Made by a program: the position numbers and the translations under genes. From Chloroflexota bacterium (GTDB lineage: Bacteria > Chloroflexota > Limnocylindria > Limnocylindrales > CSP1-4): DNA of 64,000 bases. Where the stretch lies: positions 102,642-166,641 of the forward strand of contig JACPOS010000009.1 in the NCBI GenBank assembly GCA_016191395.1, written 5' to 3'. Shown here one piece after another: positions 12,596 to 41,446 of the stretch. Under the pieces are notes generated by a model. It saw only the letters and a list, made by a program, of their open reading frames with translations, was not told the DNA's origin and made no database searches. The first letter of the stretch is position 1, and each line of letters begins with the position of its first letter.

Positions 12596-12711
12596 CTCGG
12601 CTCAAACGCATGCTGCCGGCCCGCGGATTGTAAGCGCGGCTTGGGTCGCCGCTCGGCGTTCGTGCGGAATTCGAGCACGGGCGCCGGGGGTCTTCTCCCC
12701 ATGGCGGAATC

Positions 12712-12920
12712 TGATGACATTTGTTGCATCAGGCGGGTCAGGGTGGAGGGGAGGGAAGGCGCCAGCCATGGCGGAAGCGCGGGCCATGGCGCGAGGGTCG
12801 GCCAAGCAGGGAGCGCCAGCGACGGCGTAAGCACCAGCGAAGGCAGGCGCAACCATCGGATGACCGCCTCGTGGTGTCCTTGCTCCATGACGATCGACGG
12901 TGATGCACCAAATGTCATCG
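12712..12920. repeat. Inverted pair of 20-bp palindromic boxes (TGATGACATTTGTTGCATCA / TGATGCACCAAATGTCATCG) enclosing short GC-rich degenerate repeats
   Basis: Boxes at 12712-12731 and 12901-12920 are 18/20 identical as reverse complements; related boxes at 41291 and 41371. Confidence 0.8.
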
Positions 12921-13342
12921 ATTTCGGCGCCACGGAGACGGATGCCGGCGCTCTCGAGCACGACATCGACGATTTCGAGCTCGACTGGCGCACCGAACCA
13001 CCGGAACCCGCGGCGTCCGCGCGCCCGAAGTCGACGGTCGAGGAACGGTTTGGCCAGGCCGTGATGCGGCTCCGCCTGTACTACGGTTGGTCGCAGCGGG
13101 ACCTCCAGCGGACGTGTGGCGTCCATCAGTCGCAGATCTCGAGACTGGAATCGGGTCGGCAGCGCGGGCTCTCGAGCCGTCGGATCTTCGCGATCCTGCG
13201 GGCGTTGCGCGTCGGCGAGATCGCGTTCCTGCCGCCGCCAACGGGGCCGCAGACGCCGCTCGAGATCATGTTGTTCGGCGATCCGTGGGAACGAGCTGGT
13301 CGCGCCGTCGAGCGCCGCGTCAGTCGCCGTCGTAGCGCTTGA
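12887..13342 (+). CDS. XRE-family HTH protein inserted antisense between the two fabF genes
   Basis: FGQAVMRLRLYYGWSQRDLQRTCGVHQSQISRLESG HTH_3 pattern; stop overlaps the fabF2 3' end; start uncertain (12860 or 12887). Confidence 0.7.
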   Translation: MTIDGDAPNVIDFGATETDAGALEHDIDDFELDWRTEPPEPAASARPKSTVEERFGQAVMRLRLYYGWSQRDLQRTCGVHQSQISRLESGRQRGLSSRRIFAILRALRVGEIAFLPPPTGPQTPLEIMLFGDPWERAGRAVERRVSRRRSA

Positions 13343-14594
13343 AGATGACGGCGCCGTTGTGCCCGCCGAGGCCGATGTTGTTCGAGAGCGCGTAGCGGAT
13401 CGGCATCCGCGCCGTCTCCGGCATGACCCACAGGTCGCACGCCGGGTCGGCGTCGCGGTAGTTGATCGTGCCGGGCACCGTCTGCTCGGCGACCGACATG
13501 ACCGTCGCGAAGGCCTCGAACGCACCGGCGGCGCCCATCATGTGGCCGGTCATCGACTTCGTGCCCGAGATCGCGAGGGACCGGCGGGCGCCCGCGGCGC
13601 GGTCACCGAAGACCGCCCAGATCGCCTCCGCCTCGCGGGCATCGCCGACCGGCGTGGACGTGCCGTGGGGGTTGATCATGTCGACCTCGTCGGCGGGCAC
13701 GCCGCGGCGATCGAGCGCCATCTTCATCGCCCGGGCCGAGCCGATGCCGCCCTCGATGGGCTGGATCATGTCCCAGCCGTCTGCCGCCGAGCCGTAGCCG
13801 ATGACCTCCGCGTAGATCTTCGCCCCTCGCGCCTTCGCGAGCTCCAGGTCCTCGAGGAAGAGCGAGCCCGCTCCCTCGCCGAGGACGAACCCGTTTCGGG
13901 TCGCGTCGAACGGGCGCGAGACGGTCTGGAGCGGCTCGCCCGGACGCGGGGAGCCCATCCCGCGCATGTTCGTGAAGCCGGCGTGCGCAACCTCCAGCAG
14001 CGGCGCTTCGGTGGAGCCGCTGATCACCGCGATGCAGTCACCTCGGCGGATGGCCTCGGCGGCCTCGCCGACGCTGTGCGTGCCCGTGGAGCAGGCCGAG
14101 ACCACGCAGATGTTGTGGCCGATCGCGCCCGTCTCGATCGCGATCATCCCCGACGTCGAGTCCACGAGGGCGTTGGCGATGAACGTGGGCTGGACCCGGT
14201 TCGGGCCCTTCTCCCTGAGCGTCGTGAAGTTCTCGATCATCAGCTGCTGGCCACCCGCGCCCGATCCGAACACGACCCCGACATCGGTCCGATTCGCGTC
14301 GTCGATCTCGAAGCCGGAATCCGCGACCGCCTGCTTGGCCGCGGAGACCCCGTAATGCATCTCGCGCTCGCTGCGGCGCACGGCCTTCGGATCCATCCAC
14401 GCGGCCGGATCGAAGTCCTTCACCTCGCCGCCAGCCTTGTGCTCGTAGCCGGAGACATCGAACCGCGTCAGCTCGGCGAGGCCGGAGCGGCCCTCGACGA
14501 GGCTGGACCAGGCCGTGGCGACGTCATTGCCGACGGAGCTCACGACACCGAGGCCGGTGACGACGACGCGACGCGTGTGATCTGGACTGCGCAC
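13320..14594 (-). CDS. fabF: Beta-ketoacyl-ACP synthase II, paralog 2
   Basis: RRVVVTGLG; SACSTG, PHGTST, GHMMGAAG; AAGGAG RBS before GTG 14594. Confidence 0.93.
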   Translation of the reverse strand: MRSPDHTRRVVVTGLGVVSSVGNDVATAWSSLVEGRSGLAELTRFDVSGYEHKAGGEVKDFDPAAWMDPKAVRRSEREMHYGVSAAKQAVADSGFEIDDANRTDVGVVFGSGAGGQQLMIENFTTLREKGPNRVQPTFIANALVDSTSGMIAIETGAIGHNICVVSACSTGTHSVGEAAEAIRRGDCIAVISGSTEAPLLEVAHAGFTNMRGMGSPRPGEPLQTVSRPFDATRNGFVLGEGAGSLFLEDLELAKARGAKIYAEVIGYGSAADGWDMIQPIEGGIGSARAMKMALDRRGVPADEVDMINPHGTSTPVGDAREAEAIWAVFGDRAAGARRSLAISGTKSMTGHMMGAAGAFEAFATVMSVAEQTVPGTINYRDADPACDLWVMPETARMPIRYALSNNIGLGGHNGAVIFKRYDGD

Positions 14595-14631
14595 GGGTGG
14601 TGCTCTCCTTGGGTCTGATCGGGCGGGTGGG

Positions 14632-15594
14632 TCAGGCGGGGACGAGGAAGGGAAGGTCGAAGGTGTCGCCGGCGAGGGCGTCCTCGAGCGCGACCGTGGT
14701 CGCGTCAGGAGCAATGCGCTTCACGAGGTTCGTCAGGACCTTGCCCGGGCCGACCTCCACGAAGGTGTCGACGCCGTCGGCGGCCATCTGCTGGACCGCG
14801 CGGACCCAGTCGACGCCTGCCGTGAGGTGCTCGACGAGCTCCGCGCGAGCGCCGTCGGCGGTCGCGATCGCGCGGGCATCCGCATTGGCGAGGAGTGGAA
14901 CAGTCGGGTCGTGGAACTGCACGGTCGCGAGGATCCCGCGCATCGCGGCCGCGGCCTCGGCCATGAGCGGGGAGTGGGCGGCGACGGACACCGGCAGGAC
15001 GATCGCTCGCTTCGCACCGAGGCCCTTGGCGAGCTCCGCTGCCGCGTCGATCGAGGCGCGCTCGCCGGACACCACGACCTGGCCGGGCGAGTTCCGGTTC
15101 GCGACGGCGAAGACGCCGTGTGCCGAGGCCTGCCGGACCAACTCGGGGATCGCCGCGTCGTCGAGGCCCAGGATGGCGGCCATCGCGCCGTCCCGGCCCG
15201 CGCCGCTGGCCTGCATCTGAATGCCGCGTTCGCGAACCAGGCGCACGCCGTCCGCGAGATCCAGGGCGCCGGCCGCGACCATCGCCGAGTACTGCCCCAT
15301 GGAGTGGCCGGCGGCGAAGCGCGGTGCCGGCATGTCCATGCCGATCGACGCGGCGCGTTCACTCGCGGCCACGAGGTACGCGATGGAGGCGGCGAGGAGG
15401 GCGGGCTGCGCGTTCTCGGTGCGGTTCAGCTGCTCGTCCGGGCCTTCCCAGGCAAGGGCCGAGATGGACTCGCCAAGCGCGTCATCGGCCGCCGCGAAGA
15501 TCGCGGCAGCCGCGGGGGACGCAGCCGCGAGGGCTCGGCCCATGCCGACGGACTGCGAGCCCTGGCCGGGGAAGATGAAGGCAACGTTGCTCAT
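14632..15594 (-). CDS. fabD: Malonyl-CoA:ACP transacylase
   Basis: AFIFPGQGSQ, AGHSMG, VSVAAHS, EVGPGKVL motifs. Confidence 0.95.
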   Translation of the reverse strand: MSNVAFIFPGQGSQSVGMGRALAAASPAAAAIFAAADDALGESISALAWEGPDEQLNRTENAQPALLAASIAYLVAASERAASIGMDMPAPRFAAGHSMGQYSAMVAAGALDLADGVRLVRERGIQMQASGAGRDGAMAAILGLDDAAIPELVRQASAHGVFAVANRNSPGQVVVSGERASIDAAAELAKGLGAKRAIVLPVSVAAHSPLMAEAAAAMRGILATVQFHDPTVPLLANADARAIATADGARAELVEHLTAGVDWVRAVQQMAADGVDTFVEVGPGKVLTNLVKRIAPDATTVALEDALAGDTFDLPFLVPA

Positions 15595-15687
15595 GGGGCT
15601 CGCAAAGATTGGCCCATCGTGGACCCCGTGAGCGTGGAATGTGTGCGCGCGTGCACACGATCGCTCTTGCGGGGATACGATCTGGCC

Positions 15688-16248
15688 ATGCCGCCACCAG
15701 CTGCCAGGCCCCGGACCGTCCGCGCCATCGCCCGCCGCTTCGAGGCGGACCTGGGAGCGTCGATTCTCGCCTCCGGCCCGCGGATCCCGAACGTCCGCCA
15801 GATCTCGGAGCGCGTGGCGATGGGCCGCGCGCTGTGGCGTGACCTGGTCGTCGGGTTCGCCCACCAGCTCGGCGACCTGCGGCTCGGGTTCACCCAGCTG
15901 GCGGCGCTGTACGTGCTGGCGGACGGGAGCACGACGACCGTGGGCGAGCTCGCCGAGGCACTCGGCCGGTCGCCGTCGGCGACGAGCCGGCTCGTGGACG
16001 GCCTGGCGAAGCGACGGCTGGTGGAGCGACGGGAGGAGCCTGAGGACCGTCGCCAGCGCTCGGTCGCGCTCACGCAGCGCGGCCAGGCGATCCTCCGCGC
16101 CGTGGACCGGGCAAGGGCAGACCAGTTCCTGACGACGGTCCGGCCCATGCCCACGCCGGAGCGCGCGCTCGTGGCGATGGGCGTCGCCGCGCTGGCGACC
16201 CACGCGATCTCCAGGCGCGGCCGCCTCATCAAGGGACCCGCGCGCTAG
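15688..16248 (+). CDS. MarR-family transcriptional regulator, divergent from fabD
   Basis: TVGELAEALGRSPSATSRLVDGL...EDRRQRSVALT winged-HTH pattern. Confidence 0.9.
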   Translation: MPPPAARPRTVRAIARRFEADLGASILASGPRIPNVRQISERVAMGRALWRDLVVGFAHQLGDLRLGFTQLAALYVLADGSTTTVGELAEALGRSPSATSRLVDGLAKRRLVERREEPEDRRQRSVALTQRGQAILRAVDRARADQFLTTVRPMPTPERALVAMGVAALATHAISRRGRLIKGPAR

Positions 16249-16267
16249 CTTCGGGGCTGACCGCGCG

Positions 16268-16798
16268 TTACGCCGGGTTCATCCGCCGGTAGAGCCACGC
16301 GGCGCCGAACAGCACCACCAGCGTGACGATCAGGATCGCGGCGCCGATGAGCTTGTTCTGGGTGGGGACGCCCTCGTGCGCCTCGCTCGGCGACTGGCCC
16401 GGCGCCAGGACCTCGACCTGACCGGTCATGTCCACGGGGTGCACGACGCAGAAGTACGCGTAGGTGCCGGCCTTGTCGAACGTGACGGAGAAGGTGCCAC
16501 CGACCTCCTTGAGCTTGGTCAGGCTGGCATCGGTCTTCTGCGAATCGAACGCGGCGCCCTTGTCGGCATCGGAGGGCTTGCCCGACGTCACCGTATGCGG
16601 CTCGCCGATCGCCTTCGTGACGGACCAGGTCACCGTGTCGCCCTGCGCGACGACGATCTTGGCCGGGGCGAACGACTTGCCGTCGATGCTCACGTTGATG
16701 GTCGCGGCGAGCACGGGCGAGATCGCCACTGCGGCGAGCAACAGGGTGGCGGCCACGAGGCCGAGTCGCCAGGTTCGGTGCACCAACGTCATCCGCAA
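16268..16798 (-). CDS. Secreted plastocyanin/azurin-type cupredoxin with C-terminal membrane anchor
   Basis: Signal peptide; type-1 Cu ligands in PHTV and YFCVVHPVDM; C-terminal TM helix followed by RR. Confidence 0.85.
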   Translation of the reverse strand: MRMTLVHRTWRLGLVAATLLLAAVAISPVLAATINVSIDGKSFAPAKIVVAQGDTVTWSVTKAIGEPHTVTSGKPSDADKGAAFDSQKTDASLTKLKEVGGTFSVTFDKAGTYAYFCVVHPVDMTGQVEVLAPGQSPSEAHEGVPTQNKLIGAAILIVTLVVLFGAAWLYRRMNPA

Positions 16799-18222: not shown

Positions 18223-18497
18223 CAACCCGTTCCGAGCAGGAAGTCGAAGCCAAGGAGCTTGGCGATGATCCCGAGCACGAAGCCGCCGAGGATGACGATC
18301 ACGATCATCGCCACGAGGAGCCGGGCATAGCGCCGTTCGCGCCGCTGCGTCTCCTCCAGCTCGGGGTCCAGGCCGCCTGCGATGTACGGAGCCGCGAGGC
18401 CCCGCGCCCTGGCCTGCGTCGCGCGCGGCGAGTCGTACGCGTCCGGATCAGCGGGCAGCTCGTCGGGCGGGAGCTGCTCGGGCGAGTCCTCCACCAT
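18222..18497 (-). CDS. Small membrane protein, hypothetical
   Basis: 91-aa ORF coupled to the ilvD stop and the M20 start; one C-terminal TM segment. Confidence 0.75.
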   Translation of the reverse strand: MVEDSPEQLPPDELPADPDAYDSPRATQARARGLAAPYIAGGLDPELEETQRRERRYARLLVAMIVIVILGGFVLGIIAKLLGFDFLLGTG

Positions 18498-20227: not shown

Positions 20228-20240
20228 GTCGCGGCCAAGT

Positions 20241-21947: not shown

Positions 21948-21992
21948 GCGCGGCCCCTCGCCCCGCTCGGGCGCCTCGCTATGCTCTCGCTC

Positions 21993-22406
21993 GTGAGCGA
22001 CAAGGTGGAGATCCTGCGCGCGGTCCCGCTGTTCGCGGACCTCGACGAGCGCAGCCTTCAGGCCGTCGCGGTCCTCGCCCACGAGGTCGCGTTCAACGCC
22101 GGAGAGGTGCTCATGCTCGAGGGCGAGCCGGGCGACACGTTCGAGGTGATCGTGGACGGCACCGTCCGCATCGATCGCGGCGACCGGGCAATCCGATCCA
22201 TGACGGCCGGCGGCTTCATCGGCGAGATCGCGCTCCTCGACCAGCGACCGCGGACGGCGACGGTCACGTGCGTCACCGACGTGCGTGCCCTGGAGATCCG
22301 CGCCCACGAGTTCGAGCGCCTGATCGACACGCTGCCCGCGGTCCACCGCCGGATCCGTGCGGCGGTCGACCGCCGTTCGCGCGGCCGCGACTGGGATTCG
22401 TTCTAG
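21993..22406 (+). CDS. Stand-alone cyclic-nucleotide-binding domain protein
   Basis: LRAVPLFADL...EGEPGD...FIGEIALLDQRPRTATV; no HTH. Confidence 0.88.
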   Translation: MSDKVEILRAVPLFADLDERSLQAVAVLAHEVAFNAGEVLMLEGEPGDTFEVIVDGTVRIDRGDRAIRSMTAGGFIGEIALLDQRPRTATVTCVTDVRALEIRAHEFERLIDTLPAVHRRIRAAVDRRSRGRDWDSF

Positions 22407-22424
22407 CCCCGTTCGATCGGCCGT

Positions 22425-22601
22425 CCATACCGCACAGGGACAGGAATCTGTGCCCTCGCATCGCGTCTATCCCCCGGAGGGATGGCGAGGACTGGCCAGG
22501 GGCGCGAATGAGGCCTCGACCGCTTCTGGATCGGTCGCGCGTATCCCGGCCAGGGATAGGGGCGCGCATTCGACGTCGAAACCCATCCCTGGGAGGGATA
22601 G
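22425..22601. repeat. Array of four ATCCC-N5-GGGAT-type palindromes (spacing 42/74/42 bp) between convergent genes
   Basis: CCATACCGCACAGGGACAG 22425 (degenerate), CTATCCCCCGGAGGGATGG 22467, GTATCCCGGCCAGGGATAG 22541, CCATCCCTGGGAGGGATAG 22583. Confidence 0.8.
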
Positions 22602-22619
22602 CCGCCCGGGATTCGCGCG

Positions 22620-24329
22620 CTAGCCGAGGCCCTCGAGCCACTCGGCAACTCGGCCCCGGAGGGCGGGCAGGCTGATCGCGCCGGCGCCGAGCACGGTGTC
22701 GTGGAAGGCCTTGATGTCGAACCTCGCGCCGAGCCGCGCCTTCGCCTCCGCGCGAAGGCGAAGGATCTCCAGCTGGCCTGTCTTGTAGGCGAGCGCCTGG
22801 CCCGGCCAGACGATGTAGCGATCCACCTCGTTGACGATGTTGTTCTCGCCCAGGGCTGAGTGCAGCTTCAGGAAGTCGATCGCCTCCTGGCGCGTCCAGC
22901 CCAGCGCGTGCATGCCCGTGTCCACGACGAGCCGTCCGGCCCTCCAGGCGTCGAACGACAGGATCCCGAAGCGATCCATGTCCGAGGTGTACAGGCCCAT
23001 CTCGTCCGAGAGGCGCTCCGTGTACAGGCCCCAGCCCTCGGCAAATGCGGTCGAGCCGAGCATCCGCTGGAACGCGGGTAGTCCCTCCAGCTCCTGCGCG
23101 ATCGCGATCTGGAGGTGGTGGCCTGGCACGGCCTCGTGGAACGCGAGCGCCTCGGCCTCGTATCGAGGGCGGGTCTCCGGCGCGTACTGGTTGATGTAGT
23201 ACCGGCCCGGCCGGCTCCCATCCATCGCCGGCCACGAGTAGTAGGCGATGGTCTGGTGGACCTCCGAGTGGCTCGGGACGGGGACCACGACGCACGCCGC
23301 GCCGGGGACGCGCCCGAACCAGTCCGTGACCGCGGCGGTGGCGCGTGCCAGGGAGCGCTTCGCCGTCGCGAACACCTCGTCGGCGGACTCGAAGTAGAGG
23401 CGCTTGTCGCCCCGCAGCGCCGCGAGCGTGGATTGCAGGTCCTTCGTGCCCAGCACGCGGCCGCCGAGCTCCACGAACTCCCGGTCGATGCGCTCGATCT
23501 CCGCGATGCCTGTCGCGTGGATCTCCTCGGGCGTCAGGTCGAGGGTCGTGTGGACGCGGATGCAGTCGCGGTAGGCCTCCGCGCCGCCCGGCAGGTGCCC
23601 CAGGCCCGGCTTGTCCTCCGGGCGCGCCACGGGCAGCACCGCCCGCTGCAGCGTCTCGCGGTAGCGGCGGAACCCGGGGATCGCGATCTCGCGCACCGCT
23701 TCGTCCACGGCCTCCCGGAAGCGCCGCAGGTCGGCCTCCGACCAGTCCGCATGGTCCTCCGCCGCCGGGGCCATGAGCTTCCAGTCCTCCGGCGGCATTG
23801 CCTCGAGGTGCGTGAGCACGTCCAGGACCCGCTCGACCGGCTTGCCGACGGCCACCAGGCCGTCCGCCGCGGCCTCGCGCAGGTTCGCGCCCATCTGGTC
23901 CAGGTGGCGCCCGATCCCGCGCCAGCGCTCCACGAGCGCAGCGCCGTCCGCCGGTGTTCGGATGGTCTGGTAATCGACGAGATCAAGGAGGCTCACCGTT
24001 GGGCCCCCGAGCGGATCGACGGTCCACTCGTGCATGCGCGTCCGGAGCCCCGCCGCGTTGCCGGCGCATTCGTCGATGAGCATCTGGCGGGTGACCCGCT
24101 CCATCGGGGAGAGGCCATCACCGGGGATCGCGCCCGCCTCGGCCGCAACGGAATCCAGCCAGCGGATGCGGGCGTCGATCGCTGCCGGCGACTCGTTGTC
24201 GAGCTCGCCGTCGAACCGGCGATCGCCGATGACCGTGGCCCACGTGGGATTGGCCTCCAGGAAGCCGTCCCAGAACCGGCCTGACAGCGCGCGCAGCGCC
24301 TCGCCTGCCGTCGTCGCCTCGGTGGTCAT
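22620..24329 (-). CDS. DUF885 family protein (putative metallopeptidase)
   Basis: [45 protein letters not shown] motifs. Confidence 0.92.
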
Positions 24330-24346
24330 CCGCGGGATCCCAGCGG

Positions 24347-26831: not shown

Positions 26832-26833
26832 GA

Positions 26834-28355: not shown

Positions 28356-29093
28356 CTACGGTCGCGCGACGAGCCTGTAGGGAGCTTCGCTGGATCCTCC
28401 TCCGGCCGCCCACAAGATCGCGCGCCCTGGCCAGGGATCGGATCCGCGAAGGGCATCCAGCGCGTCCCGCGGATCAGCCGGGTACGCCGTTCGGAGAAGG
28501 CGGCGATGCTCATCGGCGACGCCACGGGTCGTCCGCGTTTCTCGCACGACCACCAGCTGCGAGATCGCTGGCTCAGGTTCGAGACGAGCCCAGCCCTCCC
28601 ACGATGGCAAGGCCGCCGCCTTGGCCTCCGCCCAGCGGATCTGCTGCTCCAGGCGCCGAAGCCCGGATTCGATCTCGATGGCCAAGAACACCGCGGCCTT
28701 CGCGTCATGGAATCCGAGGTCGATCCAGCCGCGCGACGGCCGCGTGACCGCGATCTCGGTGAACCGTGCCCATCGCGGATGCACGATGCCCAGGAGTGCT
28801 TCGGCGATGGCGGACTGATGGCGATCTCGAATCGTTGCCCCGGTAGTCGGGTACAACCGCAGGCTCATATCGGCACCCAGCACCATCGCGAGCCTGGCGT
28901 ACGTATCGAGAGAGGCACTCTGCGCGCCCGCCTCGATGCGCCTGATGAAGCTCGCATCGACGCCGGACGCGCGCGCCAGCTCGGCCACAGTCAGCCCAGC
29001 GTCCTCACGCTGCCGGAGGACGTCCGCGCCGGCGCTCGCGCGGGCATGGCCTGCCGCCCGCCTCGCCGCACGCTCCCGTGCAAGGTTCGTCAT
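28356..29093 (-). CDS. XRE-HTH protein fused to a restriction-endonuclease-like (PD-(D/E)XK/DUF559-like) domain
   Basis: [31 protein letters not shown]; C-terminal E...GWIDL...LAIEIES; start 29093 or 29102. Confidence 0.75.
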
Positions 29094-29213
29094 CGTTCCC
29101 ATTGAACCCGAACGCGCTTATCTGTCGGTCAACCGTGTCGGGCCGTGGATCTGCGGCCGCTCGCCGCCCTGCGGCCGGTGGCGGCTGCCGAGCGACTCGC
29201 ACAGCGGACTGCC

Positions 29214-29370: not shown

Positions 29371-29433
29371 TGAGCTTGCCCACCCGGCGGCGAACCGGGG
29401 GCCGTGAACCCGGCCCTGGTCGCTGGCGCCGAC

Positions 29434-30390
29434 CTACGCGGCGCGAGCCCTGACGCGGAGGACCGCGAGCACGCGCGGGTCGACCCAGCCGGGCGCGGCG
29501 GTTCGCTCCTCGAGGTTCTCGACGCCCATCCAGTCCCAGAGCGCGTCCTGCCAGGCGTCGTCCCAGTTGGATGGCGTCGGTCCGGGCGTTCCGGTCATGG
29601 GTCGATCCGCCTTGTCGCCGCCGGCGGCTGCGGCGGCATCGGGGTTCATCGGCTGGTAGACGTTGCCGAAGCGGCCGCCCGGCTCCGCGCCGATCTTCGT
29701 CAGCAGCTTGCGCATCTCGGCGGCGAGCGTGGCGTCGACCGGCAGGAGGTCGCCGACGGCAGGCCGGTCCAGGTACAGCCGCTGCAGGTCCAGCAGCCGG
29801 CCCAGCTCGCCGATTGGGTCATCGTGATGGTCCACGCGAAGGTCGACCCAGCGATCGTTCGCACCGCCGTACCCGCCGCCCGCGCGCACGATCAGGAGCG
29901 AGGCGGACTCACGCCCGCGGCGGTCGCCGCCCTGCGCGTCGGCGGCGGCCAGGCAGGCGACGAGCAGCTCGGGGAACGGCCGGCCACCGCCCACGAGCGT
30001 GTCCACGAGGCCGTCGACCACCGCGGGGCCGGCGAGGATGTTGCCCTGGGCCGCGAACCCGGGACCGGTGAGGCCGCCGGCCCATGCGAAGCACGACCCG
30101 CCGGTGTGCGTCGCCGCGCCGCCGCGGGCGTCCACCATCCCGACCTGGCGCTGGCTTCGGAGTGGGTCCGCATTCACCAGGCGCTCCAGCGCCTGGTGCG
30201 CCGGCATCCCGCTGGCCATGCGGGCGAGGCCGCCTGGCCCGAACGTGACGTTCGCGAACGACTGCGTCGCGACCGCTCCCACGCCTGCCTGGGCCCACGG
30301 CACGACCGCTCCGACGGCGAGGAACTTGGACTGGACCGCGACCCCGAGGTCGCCGGTCGCGGGGTCGAGCGCGACGATCGAATAGGTCAT
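29434..30390 (-). CDS. DUF1028 domain protein (Ntn-hydrolase-like)
   Basis: MTYSIVA...GVAVQSKFLAVG...GGDRRGRESA...DLRVDHH...ENLEER. Confidence 0.92.
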   Translation of the reverse strand: MTYSIVALDPATGDLGVAVQSKFLAVGAVVPWAQAGVGAVATQSFANVTFGPGGLARMASGMPAHQALERLVNADPLRSQRQVGMVDARGGAATHTGGSCFAWAGGLTGPGFAAQGNILAGPAVVDGLVDTLVGGGRPFPELLVACLAAADAQGGDRRGRESASLLIVRAGGGYGGANDRWVDLRVDHHDDPIGELGRLLDLQRLYLDRPAVGDLLPVDATLAAEMRKLLTKIGAEPGGRFGNVYQPMNPDAAAAAGGDKADRPMTGTPGPTPSNWDDAWQDALWDWMGVENLEERTAAPGWVDPRVLAVLRVRARAA

Positions 30391-30524
30391 GCGGCCGAGG
30401 GTACGACGGGAATCAAGACGCCGGACCGGGATTGCCGCGTGGCGACCATCCCGTTCCGGCGTTGATCCGGGCGCGCGGCCCGGGCGCAGATCAAGGCACG
30501 AAGCCCGGCGCGCACCATTCGCGA

Positions 30525-30797
30525 TCAGCTCATCCGGCGTCCCATTCGACCCTTGCCGGTGGCGAAGTTCGCGATGAAGACCACAAGGATCGCCCCGAGC
30601 GTGGCGATGAAGATGCTCTCGATGTTGATGCCGTCAACGCTGCCCATCTTGAACACGTTGGCCGCGAGCCAGCCGCCGACGAGGCCGCCGACGATGCCCA
30701 GGATGACCATCATGATCAGGCCCTCACGCGAGCCCATGATCTGGTTGGCGATGAAGCCGGCGATGGCGCCGACCACGATCCATGCGATGAAACCCAT
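30525..30797 (-). CDS. GlsB/YeaQ/YmgE (transglycosylase-associated) stress membrane protein
   Basis: MGFIAWIVVGAIAG...ILGIVGGLVGG...ATLGAILV; AAGGA RBS. Confidence 0.92.
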   Translation of the reverse strand: MGFIAWIVVGAIAGFIANQIMGSREGLIMMVILGIVGGLVGGWLAANVFKMGSVDGINIESIFIATLGAILVVFIANFATGKGRMGRRMS

Positions 30798-30840
30798 CGG
30801 GTCAATGTCCTTTCGCTATCCCTTGCGGGAGGTATGAGGC

Positions 30841-31281
30841 CTAGACTTTCTCGCGGCGGAAGATCCCGATGGCCCAGATCACGATCAGCTCCAGGATGGT
30901 CCAGCCGACGATGGCGACGATCGCCGCGACATCGAACACGGAGCCGCCGGAGCGGAGCGCATTGGTCCGAAGGATCCCTTCGAACGGCGCGACGAAGATC
31001 TGGCTGAGGTTGAGGATCCCGGACACGAGGCCGTTGGCCTCGCGCGCATCGAGCAGCAGCAGGACGATGCGTGCGCCGATGACGATCTGGATCAGGCCGA
31101 AGACCAGGACGACGATTCGCCGTCCGAGCTCCGAGCCGCCGGGGGTCGACGTGGTCGAATGGCTCGCCGTCGTGACGGTCTCACGCGAGGCGATGGCCGG
31201 AGTAGCGGGGGAGACGGTCTGCGCGACGCCGGGCGTGGGCCCGGTCGTGGTGACGGTTCGATCGATGTTCTCGACGGTCAT
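30841..31281 (-). CDS. YggT-like membrane protein
   Basis: RIVLLLLDA...NLSQIFVAPFEGI...DVAAIVAIVGW; GGAG RBS. Confidence 0.8.
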   Translation of the reverse strand: MTVENIDRTVTTTGPTPGVAQTVSPATPAIASRETVTTASHSTTSTPGGSELGRRIVVLVFGLIQIVIGARIVLLLLDAREANGLVSGILNLSQIFVAPFEGILRTNALRSGGSVFDVAAIVAIVGWTILELIVIWAIGIFRREKV

Positions 31282-31321
31282 GGTTGCTCCAATTCGCGAT
31301 GGATGGTTGATGTGGTGGGCC

Positions 31322-31525
31322 TCAGCCCACGAACGTCGCCTGGGCGGCGACCAGTGCGGGGAGGAGGACGAGGATCGCCAGCGTGGCGAGGACGAGGAGA
31401 ACGGTCGTGCGCAACGCGACGACCATCGGGCTCCGCTGCGCGCTCGGCCGAGTCTCGGCCGGTTTGGCGGCGTTGGCGTCCTCGAGCATGGCTTCCCATG
31501 CGGTGGTGGTCTGATCCACGGTCAT
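31322..31525 (-). CDS. Small membrane protein, hypothetical
   Basis: GGAG RBS, ATG 31525, 67 aa with one TM helix; first gene after a TTGACA promoter. Confidence 0.6.
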   Translation of the reverse strand: MTVDQTTTAWEAMLEDANAAKPAETRPSAQRSPMVVALRTTVLLVLATLAILVLLPALVAAQATFVG

Positions 31526-31615
31526 GCGTTCTCCCGATTGCCTAATCAGGCATCCGGGGAAGCGGGGGCCTGTGGACCTCCGCCGGCTTGCGCTCCGGCC
31601 ACTGCTGTCACTTGC

Positions 31616-31669
31616 AGTAGAGCACACGTCCGTGCTATTGTCAACTGTAGTCTTATATATCAACTGTAG
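31616..31669. promoter_or_regulatory. Divergent promoter region with direct repeat TCAACTGTAG x2 (putative XRE operator)
   Basis: TCAACTGTAG at 31641-31650 and 31660-31669; minus-strand TTGACA-17 nt-TCTACT overlaps the first copy; conspicuously AT-rich patch. Confidence 0.65.
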
Positions 31670-31682
31670 GAATGAGGACGAC

Positions 31683-32063
31683 ATGGCACCAGCGATCGGG
31701 CGACTGCTGAAGCGGACCCGCCAGGTGCGCGCGCTCTCCGCGACGGAGGTCGCGCGCGCCGCCGGGATCTCCGCTGCCTACCTCAGCAAGCTGGAGCACG
31801 ACGCGGTCAAGAAGCCGTCGCCGCCGGTCCTGCACCAGCTCAGCGAGGCGCTTGACGTTCCCTATGCAGAGCTCATGCGGCTCAGCGGCTACCCGGTGCC
31901 GGGCGAGGTCGCCGCCAAGCCTGCGGACACGATCGGGGCGGCACTGTTCGCGGACATCACCGAGGACGAGCGAGATGAGTTGCTGGAATACCTCGCCTGG
32001 TATCGCACCCGGAACCGCTCGCCGCGAGCCTCGAAGATGCGCGTCGCACCGAGCCCTGCCTGA
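31683..32063 (+). CDS. XRE-family transcriptional regulator
   Basis: IGRLLKRTRQVRALSATEVARAAGISAAYLSKLE...PSPPVLHQLSEALDV; GAGG RBS. Confidence 0.9.
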   Translation: MAPAIGRLLKRTRQVRALSATEVARAAGISAAYLSKLEHDAVKKPSPPVLHQLSEALDVPYAELMRLSGYPVPGEVAAKPADTIGAALFADITEDERDELLEYLAWYRTRNRSPRASKMRVAPSPA

Positions 32064-32167
32064 GCGATGGGCGTGGGCGCAGAGCCGGGCAGTACTGACC
32101 GCTCCCATGGGCACCAAACCGTACCGGTTGCGCATTCAACCATCGGCCCCGTAGACTGCGCGCACCA

Positions 32168-32374
32168 ATGAGCTTCTCGAACCAGCCCGATCGCCGCCCC
32201 GTGGCCGTCGCCGTGACGTCCGACGGTCGCCGTGTGCAGCTGCCCGTCGAGAACGCCGAGGTACCCGTCCTCTCCCTTATCCGCTCGATCCTGGTCGGGA
32301 TCGAGGAGCTCGTCCTCCTCATTACCGGCGCTCGGCGGGAGCACGGAGGGACGCGGAGGAACGATCGCAGCTAG
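32168..32374 (+). CDS. Putative ilv-leu operon leader peptide (68 aa)
   Basis: Leu/Ile/Val cluster VPVLSLIRSILVGIEELVLLI just upstream of an antiterminator arm; TAGACT -10 box upstream. Confidence 0.7.
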   Translation: MSFSNQPDRRPVAVAVTSDGRRVQLPVENAEVPVLSLIRSILVGIEELVLLITGARREHGGTRRNDRS

Positions 32375-32401
32375 CGATCACCACCACCGACAACCAACCG
32401 G

Positions 32402-32426
32402 ACCCCCGCCGAGAGGCGGGGGTTTT
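32402..32426 (+). terminator. Intrinsic terminator/attenuator upstream of ilvB
   Basis: CCCCCGCC-GAGA-GGCGGGGG-TTTT; CCCGCCGAG (32405-32413) is complementary to CTCGGCGGG (32331-32339). Confidence 0.85.
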
Positions 32427-32475
32427 GATTTCTCAGCGTGGAGGCCGACGTGACCGAACCGATGGGCGAACGATC

Positions 32476-35986: not shown

Positions 35987-37650
35987 TGGCTCGCGCCGCG
36001 CGCTCCCGCCCCTCCGGCCCGCTCGCCCCCACCGATCGCGTCCGCGTCTTCGACACGACGCTGCGCGACGGGGAGCAGGCACCCGGTGCCGGGCTGACCG
36101 CGGCCGAGAAGCTGGAGGTCGCCCGCCAGCTCGCGCGGCTCAAGGTCGACGTCATCGAGGCTGGCTTTCCAGCCGCATCGAACGGCGACTTCGAGGCGGT
36201 CCAGCGGATCGCGCGCGAGACGAAAGGTGGGATTGCCGTGGCGGCGCTCGCGCGCTGCCGGGACGGCGATCCGCAGCGGGCGATCGAGGCGATCCGGGTC
36301 GCCGAGCGCCCGCACCTCCACGTGTTCATCGCGACGAGCGACATCCACCTGAAGCACAAGCTCCGGATCGACCGCGAGACCGCACTTGCCGAGGCGGTGA
36401 AGTGGGTCGCGTTCGGCCGCGAGCAGCTGGGCCGCGACGTCGAGATCGAGTTCAGCGCGGAGGACGCCTCGCGCACGGACCCCGAGTTCCTGCTCAAGGT
36501 CTACGAGGCCGTCGTGGCGGCGGGCGCGTCCACGATCAACATCCCGGACACGGTTGGCTACGCGATCCCGTCGGAGTTCGCGGCGCTCGTCGGCCGGACC
36601 GTGGACCTGCTCGGGAGCCAGGCGACGATCTCCGTCCACTGCCACAACGACCTGGGCCTCGCCACCGCGAACACGCTCGCAGCGGTACAGGCGGGCGCGC
36701 GCCAGGTGGAGGTCACGATCAACGGCCTGGGCGAGCGCGCCGGCAACGCGTCGCTGGAGGAGGTCGTGATGGCCCTCCGGACGCGCCCGACGCAGTTCAC
36801 GTCCGGCGCCTCCGGCGCGGGCGGGCCTGCCCTCACTCATGGCGTCCAGACGGAGCACCTGACCGCCGCGTCGCGGCTCGTCAGCTACCTCACGGGCTTC
36901 GCGATCCAGCCGAACAAGGCGGTCGTCGGCGGGAATGCCTTCGCGCACGAATCGGGCATCCACCAGGACGGCGTGATCAAGAATCCGCTGACCTACGAGA
37001 TCATGACCCCCCAGTCGGTGGGCCTGTCCGGCAACTCGATCACGATCGGCAAGCTCTCCGGTCGCAAGGGCCTTGCGAATCGGCTGGTCTCCCTGGGCTA
37101 CGACCTGGAGGGCGAGGCGCTCGACTCCATCTACCGCCAGGCGATGGCCCTCGCGGACGAGAAGAAGGACGTCACCGACGACGACCTCATCGCGCTGGTC
37201 GAGCAGCGCGTCGCCGAGGTGCCGCAGGCCGTCCGCCTCGAGGGCTGGAACGTGACCTCGTCGCACGGCGGCAAGGCAACCGGCATGGTCGCGCTCTCGG
37301 TCGGCGACGAGGATCACGCGAAGGCCGCGATCGGCAACGGGCCGGTGGACGCGCTCTTCGAGGCCGTGGATGCGGCGCTCCAGCCGGTGTTCGGCTGGCA
37401 TCCCGTGCTGGAGGCGTACGAGATCAAGGCGGTGTCCGGCGGCGAGGACGCCCAGGGCCGCGTGCTCGTGCGTTGCCGGCGCTCCAGCGACGAGGGCCCC
37501 GGCGCGCTCGTGGTCTCCGGCCACGGGTTGAGCACGAACATCATCGAGGCGTCCATCGAGGCGTACCTCGTCGCGGTCAACAAGCTGCACGGCGCCAGCG
37601 GGGCGTCGTCGTCGGCGTTCGTCGGCGCGCGGACCACCGAGCTGCCCTGA
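35986..37650 (+). CDS. leuA: 2-isopropylmalate synthase
   Basis: [36 protein letters not shown], regulatory GNGPVDA. Confidence 0.96.
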
Positions 37651-37654
37651 CATC

Positions 37655-38821
37655 GTGACGACGTATCGACTCGCGTCCATCGGGGGCGATGGGGTTGGCC
37701 CCGAGGTCACCGCGGCCGCGCGCACCGTGCTCGACGCGGTCGCGCGGCGTGACGGCTTCGGGGTCGAGTGGCTGGACGTCGTCGCCGGCGGCGCGGCGAT
37801 CGACGCGTATGGCACGGCGTTCCGGCCGGAGGACCTCGACGCGGTCGCCGCGTGCGACGCGATCCTGCTCGGCGCCGTCGGCGGCCCGCGCTGGGACGAT
37901 CCCGCCGCGCGCGTCCGGCCGGAGCAGGCACTGTTCGCGCTTCGCGGCGGCCTTGAGCTATTCGCCAACCTCCGCCCCGTCACGATTCTGCCCGCGCTCG
38001 TGCCGTCGTCGCCGGTCCGGCCGGAGGTCCTCGAGGGCGTGGACCTCCTCATCGTTCGCGAGCTCACGTCCGGGCTGTACTTCGGGCGGCCATCCGAGCA
38101 GCGCGAGACGCCGGAGGGTCGCGTCGGCATCGACACGCTCTGGTACACGGAGGGCGAGATCCGCCGGGTCGTCCGGCTCGCCTTCGAGCTGGCGCGGGGC
38201 CGGCGGCGCCGCCTGACGAGCGTGGACAAGGCCAACGTCCTTGCCACATCACGCCTGTGGCGCACGGTCGTCGACGAGCTTCGCGGCGAGTACGCGGATG
38301 TGGAGGTCAATCACCAGCTCGTCGATTCGTGCGCGATGCTGCTCGTCCGCCGTCCCGCGTCCTTCGACGTCCTCGTGACCGAGAACCTGTTCGGCGACAT
38401 CCTCTCGGACGAGGCCGCGGTCCTTGCCGGCAGCCTGGGCATGCTGCCCTCGGCCTCGCTCGGGGAGCGGCGAACCGCGCACGGCCGCTTCGGCCTGTAC
38501 GAGCCCATCCACGGCTCCGCCCCGGACATCGCCGGTCATGACCTGGCGAATCCCGCCGGCACCATCCTGTCCGCGGCCATGCTCCTCCGCTGGTCGCTCG
38601 GGCTCGAGGCGGCCGCAGCCGGCGTCGAGGCGGCCGTCGGCGCCGCGATCGCGGATGGCTATCGGACCGCAGACCTCGTTCCACCCGATGGCGACCGCGC
38701 TGGCCTCCACGTGGTCGGGACGCGCGAGATGACCGCGGCGATCGTGGAGCGGCTCGACGCGCACCGGGACGCGCGCCTCGACGCGCGTCCCGGCCCGCGC
38801 GTAGGTTCGGGAGCCGCCTGA
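37655..38821 (+). CDS. leuB: 3-isopropylmalate dehydrogenase
   Basis: GDGVGPEV, FANLRP, DKANVL, NLFGDILSD, EPIHGSAPDIAG. Confidence 0.97.
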   Translation: MTTYRLASIGGDGVGPEVTAAARTVLDAVARRDGFGVEWLDVVAGGAAIDAYGTAFRPEDLDAVAACDAILLGAVGGPRWDDPAARVRPEQALFALRGGLELFANLRPVTILPALVPSSPVRPEVLEGVDLLIVRELTSGLYFGRPSEQRETPEGRVGIDTLWYTEGEIRRVVRLAFELARGRRRRLTSVDKANVLATSRLWRTVVDELRGEYADVEVNHQLVDSCAMLLVRRPASFDVLVTENLFGDILSDEAAVLAGSLGMLPSASLGERRTAHGRFGLYEPIHGSAPDIAGHDLANPAGTILSAAMLLRWSLGLEAAAAGVEAAVGAAIADGYRTADLVPPDGDRAGLHVVGTREMTAAIVERLDAHRDARLDARPGPRVGSGAA

Positions 38822-38859
38822 TGGTCGTGGGTCCGTTCGGGCATTCCGCCACCGTGGAA

Positions 38860-39017
38860 GGACCACCAGTCCGCGATTCGGTGCGCGCCTGCTTGAACAT
38901 GGACTCGTGGTCCCGTTTCCGACGCGAAACCGAGGGTCATGACCCCGGATCGAGTCGCGAACAGGCTCGGCAGTCCATTTCGGGACATGTCGACGCGAAT
39001 TCGAGGACTCGCAGTCC
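38860..39017. repeat. Gene-less array of four GGAC-N5-GTCC palindromes (spacing 41/63/41 bp) between leuB and cimA
   Basis: GGACCACCAGTCC 38860, GGACTCGTGGTCC 38901, GGCTCGGCAGTCC 38964, GGACTCGCAGTCC 39005. Confidence 0.82.
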
Positions 39018-39056
39018 ACTCGCGCGGCCGGCCCGCCCATCCCAGGGAGCGGCATC

Positions 39057-40709
39057 GTGAGCGAGACGCCGGTCGTGCTCTACGACACGACGCTCCGCGA
39101 TGGCACCCAGGGCGAGAACATCACCCTGTCGCTCGCCGACAAGCTGCGGATCGCGCGCATCCTTGACGAGTACGGCATGCCCTACGTGGAGGGTGGGTGG
39201 CCGGGCTCCAACCCCAAGGACGTGGAGTTCTTTCGCGCCGCGAAGGACCTCACCTGGGGGTCGGCGAAGCTGGCCGCATTCGGGTCGACCCGGCACCGGT
39301 CGAACAGCGCGAAGGACGATCCGAACCTGACCGAGCTCCTCCGAGCCGAGACGCCGGTCGTCACCATCTTCGGGAAGAGCTGGGAGCTGCACGTCACCGA
39401 GGTCCTCGGCGCGACCCTCGCGCAGAACCTGGAGATGATCGCCGACAGCGTCCGGCTCATCGTGGACGAGGGCCGCGAGCTGGTCTACGACGCGGAGCAC
39501 TTCTTCGACGGCTACAAGGCGAACGCCGCCTACGCGATCTCCACGCTGCGCGCCGCCCTGGACGGCGGCGCCCGCACCCTCGTCCTGTGCGATACGAACG
39601 GCGGCACGCTCACGGGTGAGCTGCTGGACATCCTGGGCGCCACGCGCGCTGCGCTCACTGCCGCGGACGGGACGGCACCGACCTTCGGCATCCACACCCA
39701 CAACGACGCAGAGCTCGCGGTCGCGAACTCGCTGGCCGCCGTGGGCGCAGGCGTCCGCCATGTCCAGGCCACGATCAACGGCTACGGCGAGCGGACGGGC
39801 AACGCGAACATGGTCAGCGTCCTCGCCGGCCTCGCGCTCAAGACGTCGTACCCGCTCCTCCCGCCGGGCGGCGGCGACCTCACCGGGCTGACGGAGCTCT
39901 CGCGGTCGGTCGCGGAGATCGCGAACCAGGCGCCCAACGACTACCAGCCGTACGTCGGGCGATCGGCGTTCGCGCACAAGGGCGGCGTGCACGGCGCGGC
40001 GGTGGCGAAAGTGGAGCGGAGCTACCAGCACATCGACCCGACCGCGGTCGGTAACGAGGGCCGGCTCGTCGTCTCCGAGCTCGGCGGCAAGGCGAACACG
40101 GAGATCCGCGCGCGCCAGCTCGGCCACCAGCTGGACGGCGTGGTGGAGCCGGCAGTCCTCTCCACGCTGATCAAGAAGCTCGAGAGCGAGGGCCTCTCGT
40201 TCGAGGGCGCCGAGGCGTCGTTCGAGCTCCTGATCCGGCGTCACCAGGCGGGCTACGCACCGCCCTTCCGCGTCATCGACTACACGTGCCTGGTGGAGCA
40301 GCGAGCCGACGCCGCCCTCCGCGCCGAGGCGACGGTCAAGGTGGAGGTCGATGGGGAGCTGCTGCACACGGCCGCCGAGGGCAACGGTCCGGTGAACGCA
40401 CTCGACGCCGCGCTCCGCAAGGCGCTCCGTGCCTTCTACCCGGTGCTCGACACCGTCCACCTGTACGACTACAAGGTGCGCATCATCGATTCCGGCTCCG
40501 CGACCGGGGCGCGCACCCGCGTGACCATCGAATCGACCGACGGCGCGCTGGAATGGTCGACCATGGGCTCCGACACGAACATCATCGCGGCCTCCGCGAC
40601 CGCCCTCGGCGACTCGCTGGAGTACGCGATCTGGAAGCGGGGCGCCGAGCTTCGGCGCCGCGATGAGCGACACTTCACGACCGTGATCGCAGGAGATGCA
40701 GCGAGATGA
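39057..40709 (+). CDS. cimA: Citramalate synthase
   Basis: YDTTLRDGTQGE, EGGWPGSNPKD, YDAEHFFDGY, AFAHKGGVH, DYKVRI typical of the CimA clade. Confidence 0.92.
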   Translation: MSETPVVLYDTTLRDGTQGENITLSLADKLRIARILDEYGMPYVEGGWPGSNPKDVEFFRAAKDLTWGSAKLAAFGSTRHRSNSAKDDPNLTELLRAETPVVTIFGKSWELHVTEVLGATLAQNLEMIADSVRLIVDEGRELVYDAEHFFDGYKANAAYAISTLRAALDGGARTLVLCDTNGGTLTGELLDILGATRAALTAADGTAPTFGIHTHNDAELAVANSLAAVGAGVRHVQATINGYGERTGNANMVSVLAGLALKTSYPLLPPGGGDLTGLTELSRSVAEIANQAPNDYQPYVGRSAFAHKGGVHGAAVAKVERSYQHIDPTAVGNEGRLVVSELGGKANTEIRARQLGHQLDGVVEPAVLSTLIKKLESEGLSFEGAEASFELLIRRHQAGYAPPFRVIDYTCLVEQRADAALRAEATVKVEVDGELLHTAAEGNGPVNALDAALRKALRAFYPVLDTVHLYDYKVRIIDSGSATGARTRVTIESTDGALEWSTMGSDTNIIAASATALGDSLEYAIWKRGAELRRRDERHFTTVIAGDAAR

Positions 40710-41242
40710 CCCCAGCGCAACCGCAGGCCGCCGCAACCCCCACGCTCCAGCTGACGCGCTGGACGGTGACCTCCGGCAGCAACGTCCAGAGCCGCGGCGC
40801 GGTGGTCATCGAGGCCGGGTCCCACCACTGGCGCGCGTCCGCCGAGGGCAACGGCGCGGTCGACGCGCTGTTCCAGGCGGTCGATGCGGCCCTCGTGGAC
40901 GTCCTGCAGGGCCACCCCAAGCTCGTCGGCTACGACGTCCACGCGCTGGCGCAGGGGCCCGAGGCGGAGGGTCTCGTCATCGTCGCCATCGAGCCGCCCG
41001 CCGGCCTCGAGGGCGCGCGATCGACCGGGCTCTACCAGGGCCGGTCGCGCAGCACGAACATCATCGCCGCCTCCATCGAGGGCTACGTCGATGCGCTCAA
41101 CGCGATGCTCGCCGAGGCGCACTGGGCCGGGGCGGCCGAGTCCGCCGGAAAGAGCCGCCGCGCCGCGCCCGAGACCCACGGCCGACGGGCCGAGATGGAT
41201 CCGGATGCAACCGACGACGGCGCCCCCTGGTTCGACCGGTAG
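40706..41242 (+). CDS. Stand-alone alpha-isopropylmalate synthase regulatory (LeuA dimer) domain protein
   Basis: EGNGAVDALFQAVD...YDVHAL...STNIIAASIEGY matches the C-termini of LeuA and CimA in this window. Confidence 0.85.
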   Translation: MTPAQPQAAATPTLQLTRWTVTSGSNVQSRGAVVIEAGSHHWRASAEGNGAVDALFQAVDAALVDVLQGHPKLVGYDVHALAQGPEAEGLVIVAIEPPAGLEGARSTGLYQGRSRSTNIIAASIEGYVDALNAMLAEAHWAGAAESAGKSRRAAPETHGRRAEMDPDATDDGAPWFDR

Positions 41243-41446
41243 CTACTTCGCGAGCGACCCCGGCGGGTCGTCTCTCATTTCGCGCCGATTCGATGACATT
41301 CGCTGCATCACTTGCGGCGAACGACGCGACGATCCTGCCAATTCGTGGGCCCCGAGCCGGGCGCCCGTCTTGATGCAACGACGATCATCAATTCGCGCCG
41401 AAACGAAGAAGGAGCGGCGCGGACCGGCGCTCCGCTACTTCGCGAG
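41242..41446. mobile_element. Small non-coding insert flanked by a perfect 13-bp direct repeat and carrying TGATG..CATCA boxes
   Basis: GCTACTTCGCGAG at 41242-41254 and 41434-41446; boxes CGATGACATTCGCTGCATCA 41291 and TGATGCAACGACGATCATCA 41371. Confidence 0.65.

Follow-up and report, generated by a model that had tools for sequence, protein, structure and literature searches.

The 64,000-nucleotide stretch of DNA analysed here (the window, C31:102642-166641 of the source assembly) comes from an uncultured Chloroflexota bacterium whose genome (G000; 2.42 Mb in 31 contigs, 70% G+C, 89.9% complete) is, like every genome with which it is compared below, a metagenome-assembled genome (MAG). A Pfam search on 48 chosen open reading frames (ORFs) of the window gives a map of tightly packed genes, which five inserts built on spaced palindromes interrupt. 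Two of these inserts lie at genes for XRE-family helix-turn-helix (HTH) proteins, P0001 and P0002, and three have no gene of their own. A preliminary description of the window, made from its letters alone, had placed the five inserts and their motifs correctly, some sites being degenerate, and had noted the absence of transposases and integrases, families that have no match among the 48 ORFs. The inserts and the two genes are as follows.

12671-12962: type-2 element with gene, made of inverted 20-bp boxes (box 1 at 12712-12731; box 2 at 12901-12920, within codons 5-11 of P0002)
12887-13342, + strand: small XRE gene (P0002)
22407-22619: gene-less type-3 array, ATMCC-N5-GGGAT, with sites at 22427, 22469, 22543 and 22585 (spacing 42/74/42), between the convergent stop codons of a cNMP-binding gene and a DUF885 gene
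28356-29102, - strand: gene for an XRE-HTH protein with a predicted PD-(D/E)XK-like domain (P0001); Pfam HTH_3, C-terminal half without a Pfam family
29116-29122, - strand: GATAAGC motif upstream of P0001
29213-29371: type-1 array, GGAC-N5-GTCC, with sites at 29213, 29254, 29316 and 29357 (41/62/41), upstream of the P0001 gene
38822-39056: gene-less type-1 array, GGAC-N5-GTCC, with sites at 38859, 38900, 38963 and 39004 (41/63/41), between leuB and cimA
41255-41433 (41242-41446 with its duplications): gene-less type-2 element with boxes at 41291-41310 and 41371-41390, between a LeuA_dimer gene and a convergent DUF4397 gene

Among the four-site arrays, two sites are exact and two degenerate at 29.2 kb, the third is degenerate at 38.9 kb, and the first is degenerate at 22.5 kb, where the 42/74/42 layout first described holds and the consensus is ATMCC-N5-GGGAT. 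A score that compares eight half-sites with their own consensus (maximum 40) was scanned over the whole genome; a generic search, at any distance, for pairs of 4-N5-4 palindromes with the same stem had been swamped by G+C-only palindromes and codon periodicity, and the four-site score was used instead. In the whole genome, 12 four-site arrays with outer spacings of 40-43 bp and A/T in the half-site reach at least 35/40, whereas control spacings of 30-33, 35-38, 46-49 and 51-54 bp each yield none at the same cut. The geometry of the arrays is therefore far from chance. It is common to types 1 and 3, which differ in sequence, and the arrays of G000 fall into at least three sequence classes, including one that the preliminary description had missed. 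The copies beyond those listed above, with two type-1 arrays that score below the cut of 35, are:

C28 22097 (to 22255): type 1
C31 141500 (the 38.9-kb array, score 33) and C29 73494 (score 32): weaker type-1 arrays
C29 81127, C20 13039 and C26 44101: type 3
C25 48910, C2 9360, C8 46447, C9 17723 and C9 56657: fourth class, GTCGC-N5-GCGAC (n=5)

Type 3 is represented by four copies in G000 and the fourth class by five, with 3-7 per class overall. Spacing is fixed within a class, at 41/62-63/41 or 42/72-74/42, with one array at 42/63/42. All G000 arrays are intergenic, and their neighbours are co-directional, divergent and convergent alike. What is conserved in them is the palindromes and an A/T-containing motif on the inner flank, both arranged with dyad symmetry, and not the spacers or termini: the inner flank carries G[AG]W{2,4}C at site A in 25 of 46 arrays and at site D in 22 of 46, as against 1 of 46 for each outer flank. 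Exact paired GGAC-N5-GTCC sites are found in 6/36 genomes of the genus and in 0/24 of the neighbouring family, with a reversed-pattern control matching one genome. We also observe a type-1 array between thrS and infC in one relative (L007, G007:C32), and another between MttB-family and MTHFR-like genes both in G000 (C28 22097-22255) and in G014 (L005, C10), so that this last insertion is either shared or recurrent.

Type-2 boxes number 17 in the genome, as seven inverted pairs and three solo boxes, and outside each box lies a conserved arm of ~35-40 nt (17 arms). With the 12 four-site arrays, the seven pairs bear out a multi-copy, multi-type family. By eye, a GAATT/GATTT motif similar to the inner A/T motif of the four-site arrays adjoins the boxes. 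The 12.7-kb element has inverted arms of ~35-40 nt around a core that presumably contains the P0002 promoter. P0002 itself (151 aa) belongs to the XRE family, with HTH_3 at residues 61-110 (E=1.9e-10) and no further domain, and presumably binds the type-2 boxes. The order of box 1, promoter, ATG and box 2 (codons ~5-11) is kept in six P0002 orthologues; those of G084 and G030 have this layout, as do those of G022, G068 and G061, with other box sequences.

Comparison of gene junctions among relatives indicates that most of these inserts are polymorphic. The host genes that define the junctions are:

11321-12595, - strand: fabF
13320-14714, - strand: second ketoacyl synthase (KAS) gene
ending at 22406, + strand: cNMP-binding gene
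22620-24329, - strand: DUF885 gene
beyond the P0001 gene: leuC and leuD, in that order
29434-30390, - strand: DUF1028 gene
ending at 38821 (leuB): ilvBNC-leuA-leuB
39057-40709: cimA
ending at 41242: LeuA_dimer gene
41435-42358, - strand: DUF4397 gene

Four of the five inserts are absent from the same junctions in close relatives. The clearest case is leuB|cimA, where the gap is at most 64 nt in 20 of the 23 relatives that have both genes at one locus, many of them overlapping as GTGA, as compared with 235 nt in G000, where the type-1 array fills it. Other palindromes occupy this gap, by eye, in G005 (TGGCT-N5-AGCCA; L052, 225 nt) and G071 (GGGCT-N3-AGCCC; L054, 283 nt), and the filling of one junction by different inserts in three genomes marks it as a repeated landing place. 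In G070 the gap is 114 nt, with two CCGGGC-type palindromes that we do not count as an array. In G000, the old leuB 3' end can still be made out beyond the right edge of the array, which is flanked by an imperfect 16-17 nt repeat of it (38782-38798 and 39021-39036; p~0.04). Contigs from two other studies carry the array with one difference, while in a ~90%-identical metagenome contig of a fourth run the array is absent and 38756 is linked to 39046 by 11 other letters.

The remaining junctions give a similar picture. The 22.5-kb array is absent in all five closest relatives, where ~15-30 nt separate the two stop codons, and the DUF1028|XRE gap of 331 nt in G000 compares with ~40-80 nt and no array at the three syntenic loci inspected (G084, G005 and G071). 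P0002 and its boxes lie between KAS and fabF in only 5/60 relatives, the two host genes being 0-130 nt apart in most others. At 12.7 kb the insert has the start of fabF on one side and the KAS stop on the other, not two stops, which amends the original statement that all five inserts sit at host stop codons. At 41.3 kb, the element is flanked by a perfect 13-bp duplication, GCTACTTCGCGAG (41242-41254 and 41434-41446); in G084 the element is absent, the stop codons overlap and a single homologous 13-mer, GCTAGTAGCCGAG, is present. The element is absent in G061 too.

Flanking duplications, which had been described for all five inserts as perfect in one case and short or degenerate in the others, fared unevenly when tested against 300 shuffles. 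They are significant at 41.3 kb (p<0.003), marginal at 38.9 kb (p~0.04) and at chance level at 12.7, 22.5 and 29.2 kb, including the 9-bp repeats TCGAGCACG of the 12.7-kb element (12671-12679 and 12954-12962); at 22.5 kb an imperfect GGGATTCG..CTAGCC repeat can be seen by eye. Among type-2 elements, significant duplications of 12-13 bp occur at two of the seven box pairs.

P0001 is a protein of 248 aa (245 aa from an alternative start at 29093) with HTH_3 at residues 30-78 (E=4.5e-9); a PADLOC search gives HTH-level matches only. Its AlphaFold model (44 homologues in the alignment) has a pLDDT of 88. In this model, residues 92-248 align to XisH (2okf, Z 9.3, 119 residues), NucS (2vld, Z 8.8) and SfsA (4dap, Z 8.5), all PD-(D/E)XK-fold proteins, around an alpha-beta-beta-beta-alpha-beta core (helix 94-106, strands 112-119, 125-133 and 138-145, helix 151-163, strand 179-187). 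The C-terminal domain thus models as a PD-(D/E)XK-like fold, in agreement with the nuclease-like domain, unlike that of RAYT proteins, that was predicted at the outset. D128, E143 and K161, the last on the next helix, are invariant in the 44 homologues and E101 is nearly so, and the domain as a whole is more strongly conserved than the recognition helix. The HTH is closest in structure to C.BclI (Z 11.6) and C.AhdI (Z 11.2), and ClgR is also among the closest structures to the XRE domains. Only 286 representatives of the C-terminal domain are found in 1.84 billion proteins, nearly all of them ~250 aa long with the domain at the C-terminus, so that the family is narrow and its architecture fixed. 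Four clear paralogues are present in G000; within the genus, one or more occur in 34 of 61 genomes.

A GATAAGC (RTAAGC) motif lies, by eye, 20-35 nt before the start in the inspected paralogues of the P0001 gene and in the small-XRE orthologues of G084 and G030. We presume it to be a core-promoter element, and it describes the upstream box shared by the two HTH genes better than the motif first proposed. Under a codon-usage model trained on the long genes of this genome, both genes have low scores: they fell short of the gene-calling threshold, and a score of 8.1 was obtained for the P0001 gene. This hints at an atypical composition.

Three further observations concern P0001 homologues. One paralogue forms, with a 202-aa gene without a Pfam match, a 1.7-kb cassette between FdhD and DUF4260 (L196, G000:C9:98300-101900, positions 1398-3097). 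It joins the host genes through overlapping start and stop codons, and G069, G080 and G013 lack it. Ahead of its XRE gene are two TGAC-N5-GTCA-like sites, separated by ~82 nt. At L018, L020 and L025 (G033, G066 and G031), G+C-rich tandem repeats of ~20-62 nt lie between the array region and the P0001 homologue. Finally, contigs with close homologues (L123, L148, L158, L178 and L186) are labelled Gemmatimonadales, Gaiellaceae, Actinomycetota, Galbitalea or Binatia, the cause being mis-binning or transfer.

The link between protein and array is seen first in their association. In a species-representative set (the best 80 of 226 P0001 homologues, which overlaps a 27-locus genus set), an array scoring at least 33/40 lies upstream of the gene at 33/79 loci (24 at 35 or more), compared with 4/77 downstream (2 at 35 or more). 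In the genus set, arrays of at least 33 lie within 450 nt upstream at 10/27 loci, while the maximum of 81 shuffles is 28. These arrays stand on one side of the P0001-type genes only, stop 50-270 nt short of the start codon, with GATAAGC shortly downstream, and always have the 41-42 / 62-74 / 41-42 geometry. Their half-sites are of at least 15 kinds (TGGAC, CGGAC, TTGAC, TCGAC, GAGAC, TGGCA, ATCCC, GTGCC and others, among them CTCGC, ATCGG, ATGCG, GTGCG, GCCCC, TCCCC and AGACC). The four sites are alike within one array and the arrays differ from each other, which calls for one cognate binding protein per array.

The second link is co-variation. Recognition helices with 'RIE' go with xxGAC half-sites in 13/14 cases and non-RIE helices with other half-sites in 12/16, the four exceptions all being TCGAC with the helix AYLYRIL, and PGFLCRIE goes with TTGAC in 3/3; since the sequences are related, the counts are not independent of one another. 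Among P0002 orthologues, HQSQ is paired with GATGA..GCATC, DQTT/SQST with CATGCC..TGCATA, and DQSM with GATGCC..GCATAT. In both protein families, half-site class tracks the recognition helix. Further copies in the genome, empty alleles in relatives (one with a single copy of the duplicated 13-mer), co-variation of HTH and palindrome, and a non-random occurrence of the spaced motifs (none at control spacings) were the four points on which the preliminary description had staked the element family; all four were examined, and the finding survived.

We read these inserts, with a probability of about one half, as operator-like arrays that are or were mobile, with a cognate XRE protein for each, in the manner of REP sequences and RAYT proteins. 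The element would be a short non-coding palindrome array of ~160-200 bp, found in a Limnocylindria-like genus of Chloroflexota and composed of four copies of one 13-17 bp spaced palindrome, or of two 20-bp ones in type 2, set as two inverted halves, with a short A/T-containing GAWTC-like motif on the inner flank of each outer site. Centre-to-centre distances of 41-42 / 62-74 / 41-42 bp correspond to ~4, 6-7 and 4 helical turns, and the sites would thus face one side of the DNA. The palindromes would be the binding sites of the cognate protein, either of the ~245-aa type with XRE-HTH and PD-(D/E)XK-like domains or of the ~150-aa XRE type. At its own gene, dimers bound to the array just upstream of the core promoter would join into a higher-order complex and bring about autoregulation, and extra gene-less copies would have been inserted at gene junctions, where they are least harmful.

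The comparison with REP/BIME repeats and their RAYT proteins holds in several respects. These too are short palindromic intergenic repeats, present in many copies at gene ends (PMC2817692). A lineage has several classes, each with a cognate, resident, single-copy gene flanked by its repeat. Here, likewise, an array stands next to the cognate gene, on one side only, and the class of the repeat matches that of the protein. The differences lie in the protein, which is HUH/Y1 there and XRE-HTH with a PD-(D/E)XK-like domain, or XRE alone, here (Y1_Tnp, PF01797, has no match in the 90%-complete G000, with control genomes matching), and in the DNA: hairpin-forming imperfect palindromes of ~20-40 nt there, and here 13-20 bp spaced palindromes with half-sites of 4-6 bp, phased as four double-stranded dimer-type sites and low in copy number (3-7 per class).

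Several results weigh against this reading and against an active role of the nuclease-like domain. Outside the HTH, P0001 has no match in Pfam (even at E<=10), NCBIfam or PADLOC; its alignments to XisH, NucS and SfsA span 103-119 residues at middling Z scores of 8.5-9.3, and position 145, that of the lysine of the (D/E)xK motif, is Q/E. The leuCD-linked orthologue is syntenic in at least six relatives, none of the three inspected having an upstream array. An orthologue at the same place without an array indicates that the gene is resident and can do without the array, which is the newcomer. No P0001 homologue at E<=1e-20 is found in G003, G007 and G025 (58-83% complete), all of which have GGAC arrays, and no XRE gene adjoins any copy of types 3 and 4 in the 90%-complete G000. 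P0002, the type-2 partner, lacks a catalytic domain, yet six gene-less box pairs and three solo boxes are present. Duplications are significant at only 3/20 elements genome-wide, with lengths of 12, 13(-17) and ~16 nt; being few and of unequal length, they do not indicate a classical cut-and-paste or copy-and-paste transposase. The relatedness of the sequences behind the co-variation counts is a further such point. The initial proposal that the nuclease-like protein spreads the arrays is unsupported; the resident gene, the nuclease-less type-2 partner, the irregular duplications and the three incomplete relatives with arrays stand against it.

We regard as speculative, and as less likely than not, a role of the PD-(D/E)XK-like domain in cutting DNA and in driving the copying of the arrays, as RAYT does for REP/REPIN. 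The mechanism in which a resident HTH-PD-(D/E)XK enzyme, acting on four phased palindromes, would copy the ~170-bp array into gene junctions while specificities diversify fast is a tentative one that we hold to be rather improbable, and the same applies, as speculation, to a nuclease-less XRE lineage that would ride the same machinery via the inner GAWTC-like motif. XisH, the best structural match to the domain, is an fdxN-element excision factor, a protein involved in excising a DNA element. P0001 differs from XisH, NucS and SfsA in having no sequence-level match to them and in the fusion to an XRE-HTH, which is specific to its family.

The alternative that survives best is one of regulation only, in which the arrays are multi-site operators of autoregulated XRE factors, the gene-less copies are regulon or decoy sites produced by local turnover or recombination, and the PD-(D/E)XK-like domain is dead and serves oligomerisation or ligand binding. 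The proteins do have an HTH_3 / Cro-C1-type domain and palindromic sites at their own promoters, as expected of autoregulated XRE factors, and much else fits: the position of the arrays just upstream of the conserved GATAAGC, the small-XRE boxes that bracket promoter and start codon in 6/6 orthologues in a classical looping layout, the resident and syntenic XRE-nuclease-like gene, the inconsistent target duplication and the non-conserved catalytic lysine position. We nevertheless consider this alternative unlikely, since arrays also lie between convergent stop codons (22.5 kb, 41.3 kb and C20 13039), where no promoter is expected, and one splits leuB|cimA, a junction that overlaps as GTGA in many relatives and that three array types fill in three genomes. 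The ~35-40 nt of arm sequence that type-2 copies share beyond their boxes makes them copies of one another rather than convergent sites. The perfect 13-bp duplication, against a single copy in the empty allele, points the same way, and at least 15 changes of specificity within one class would be unusual for orthologous transcription factors.

Two regulatory systems are close to this alternative. The P0001 HTH resembles the C proteins of restriction-modification (R-M) systems, and in relatives the outer type-1 site (GGACTGNCAGTCC) includes the C-box half-operator GACT-N3-AGTC; unlike in those systems, the window has no R-M genes nearby, and the sites are 41 bp apart rather than adjacent. In Xre-RES (PMC12204516), an XRE-type complex that has two or more dimeric DNA-binding units uses repeated palindromes to repress its own promoter. 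It differs in being a toxin-antitoxin system at a single promoter, with neither dispersed gene-less copies nor a phased four-site array. A reading of the type-1 motif as a restriction-enzyme site was rejected, GGAC-N5-GTCC not being depleted (110 sites versus ~100 expected from base composition).

A second alternative, which we regard as improbable, treats the arrays as similar to miniature inverted-repeat transposable elements (MITEs), moved in trans by an unrecognised conventional transposase or recombinase, with the XRE proteins as repressors kept by the host or the element. MITEs such as Correia, ERIC and Nezha are likewise small, non-coding, multi-copy and present or absent at orthologous sites, and type-2 elements share with them true inverted arms and, in the two pairs noted above, significant target duplications. 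The genome holds two rve-type transposase genes and three tyrosine recombinases (Phage_integrase), and in an assembly that is 90% complete, contig ends are repeats. Against this, G000 has no Y1_Tnp or DDE_Tnp_1 match, no insertion sequence with array termini, and hence no matching autonomous element, was seen in a search that was not exhaustive, and duplication length is not fixed. The four-site arrays conserve their sites, phasing and inner A/T motif and not spacers, termini or whole sequence, and the arrays upstream of 33/79 XRE-nuclease-like genes, with matching specificity classes, are left unexplained. Transposon ends of the inverted repeat/direct repeat (IR/DR) kind (Sleeping Beauty/Tc3-type) have two binding sites per inverted repeat, and so likewise present four sites for an HTH protein as two inverted pairs; they differ from the arrays, whose two 'ends' are ~60-75 bp apart and enclose no gene, whose palindromic sites suit dimers and whose proteins have no DDE domain.

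That the arrays act as RNA, as small hairpins, terminators or mRNA-stabilising structures of the kind proposed for REP/BIME, is very improbable and found little support when the early hairpin-RNA suggestion was pursued: every copy is at gene ends, each arm of the 41.3-kb element holds, by eye, a hairpin rich in G+C and then, towards the convergent genes, a stretch rich in T, and this element folds as a long imperfect hairpin (z -1.86), but folding z-scores are unremarkable (-1.93, -0.09 and -1.86, with 7, 85 and 10 of 200 shuffles folding as well), stems are only 4-6 bp, the recurrence of one stem sequence four times per array with varying loops is what a DNA-binding dimer and not an RNA needs, and Rfam at E<=1 gives no match in window 10000-44000 except a chance snoRNA.

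Some features of the genome stand apart from these elements. A third XRE-family gene, overlooked at first, lies at 31684-32063 (likeliest start 31684), outside the array family and divergent from three small membrane-protein genes (30525-31525). The region 5' of it (gene and region together at window 31600-32063) is unusually A/T-rich, with the direct repeat TCAACTGTAG present twice. Further on, a short ORF (32168-32374) rich in Ile, Leu and Val (..SLIRSILVGIEELVLLITG..) is followed by a G+C hairpin and T-run (~32400-32432), with ilvB just downstream; together (window 32168-32432) these look like a leader-peptide attenuator of the ilv-leu operon. Outside the window, G000 contains another family of intergenic repeats (18 members), which has no relation to the palindrome arrays. 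Its members have a REP-like hairpin core (..CGCTCACGCAC-N6-8-GTGCGCTCGC..) and are often found after tRNA genes or at gene ends. Examples are:

C26:11288-11426
C5:8304-8433
C13:16296-16435
C31:58192-58608

We find no prior description of such arrays, or of a repeat-tied XRE family with a PD-(D/E)XK-like domain, in a search of the open-access literature. If the tentative mechanism of copying by an HTH-PD-(D/E)XK enzyme is true, the arrays would represent a prokaryotic mobile-DNA system of a new kind, with a REPIN/RAYT-like symbiosis built on another enzyme fold and on double-stranded, operator-like DNA. Read as mobile and tied to cognate XRE proteins, the palindrome arrays would be the second, independent partnership between a dispersed repeat and a cognate chromosomal protein, for which REP/RAYT has so far been the textbook case, in a host lineage of soil and groundwater that is abundant but uncultured, and if the nuclease-like domain is active, it would also be a new route of DNA mobility. 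The many specificities on a fixed geometry would offer a natural library of matched HTH/operator pairs for the study of how recognition helices are re-targeted, and may be of use as orthogonal repressor/operator parts. For annotation, the arrays account for odd long gaps in the otherwise tightly packed operons of these MAGs.

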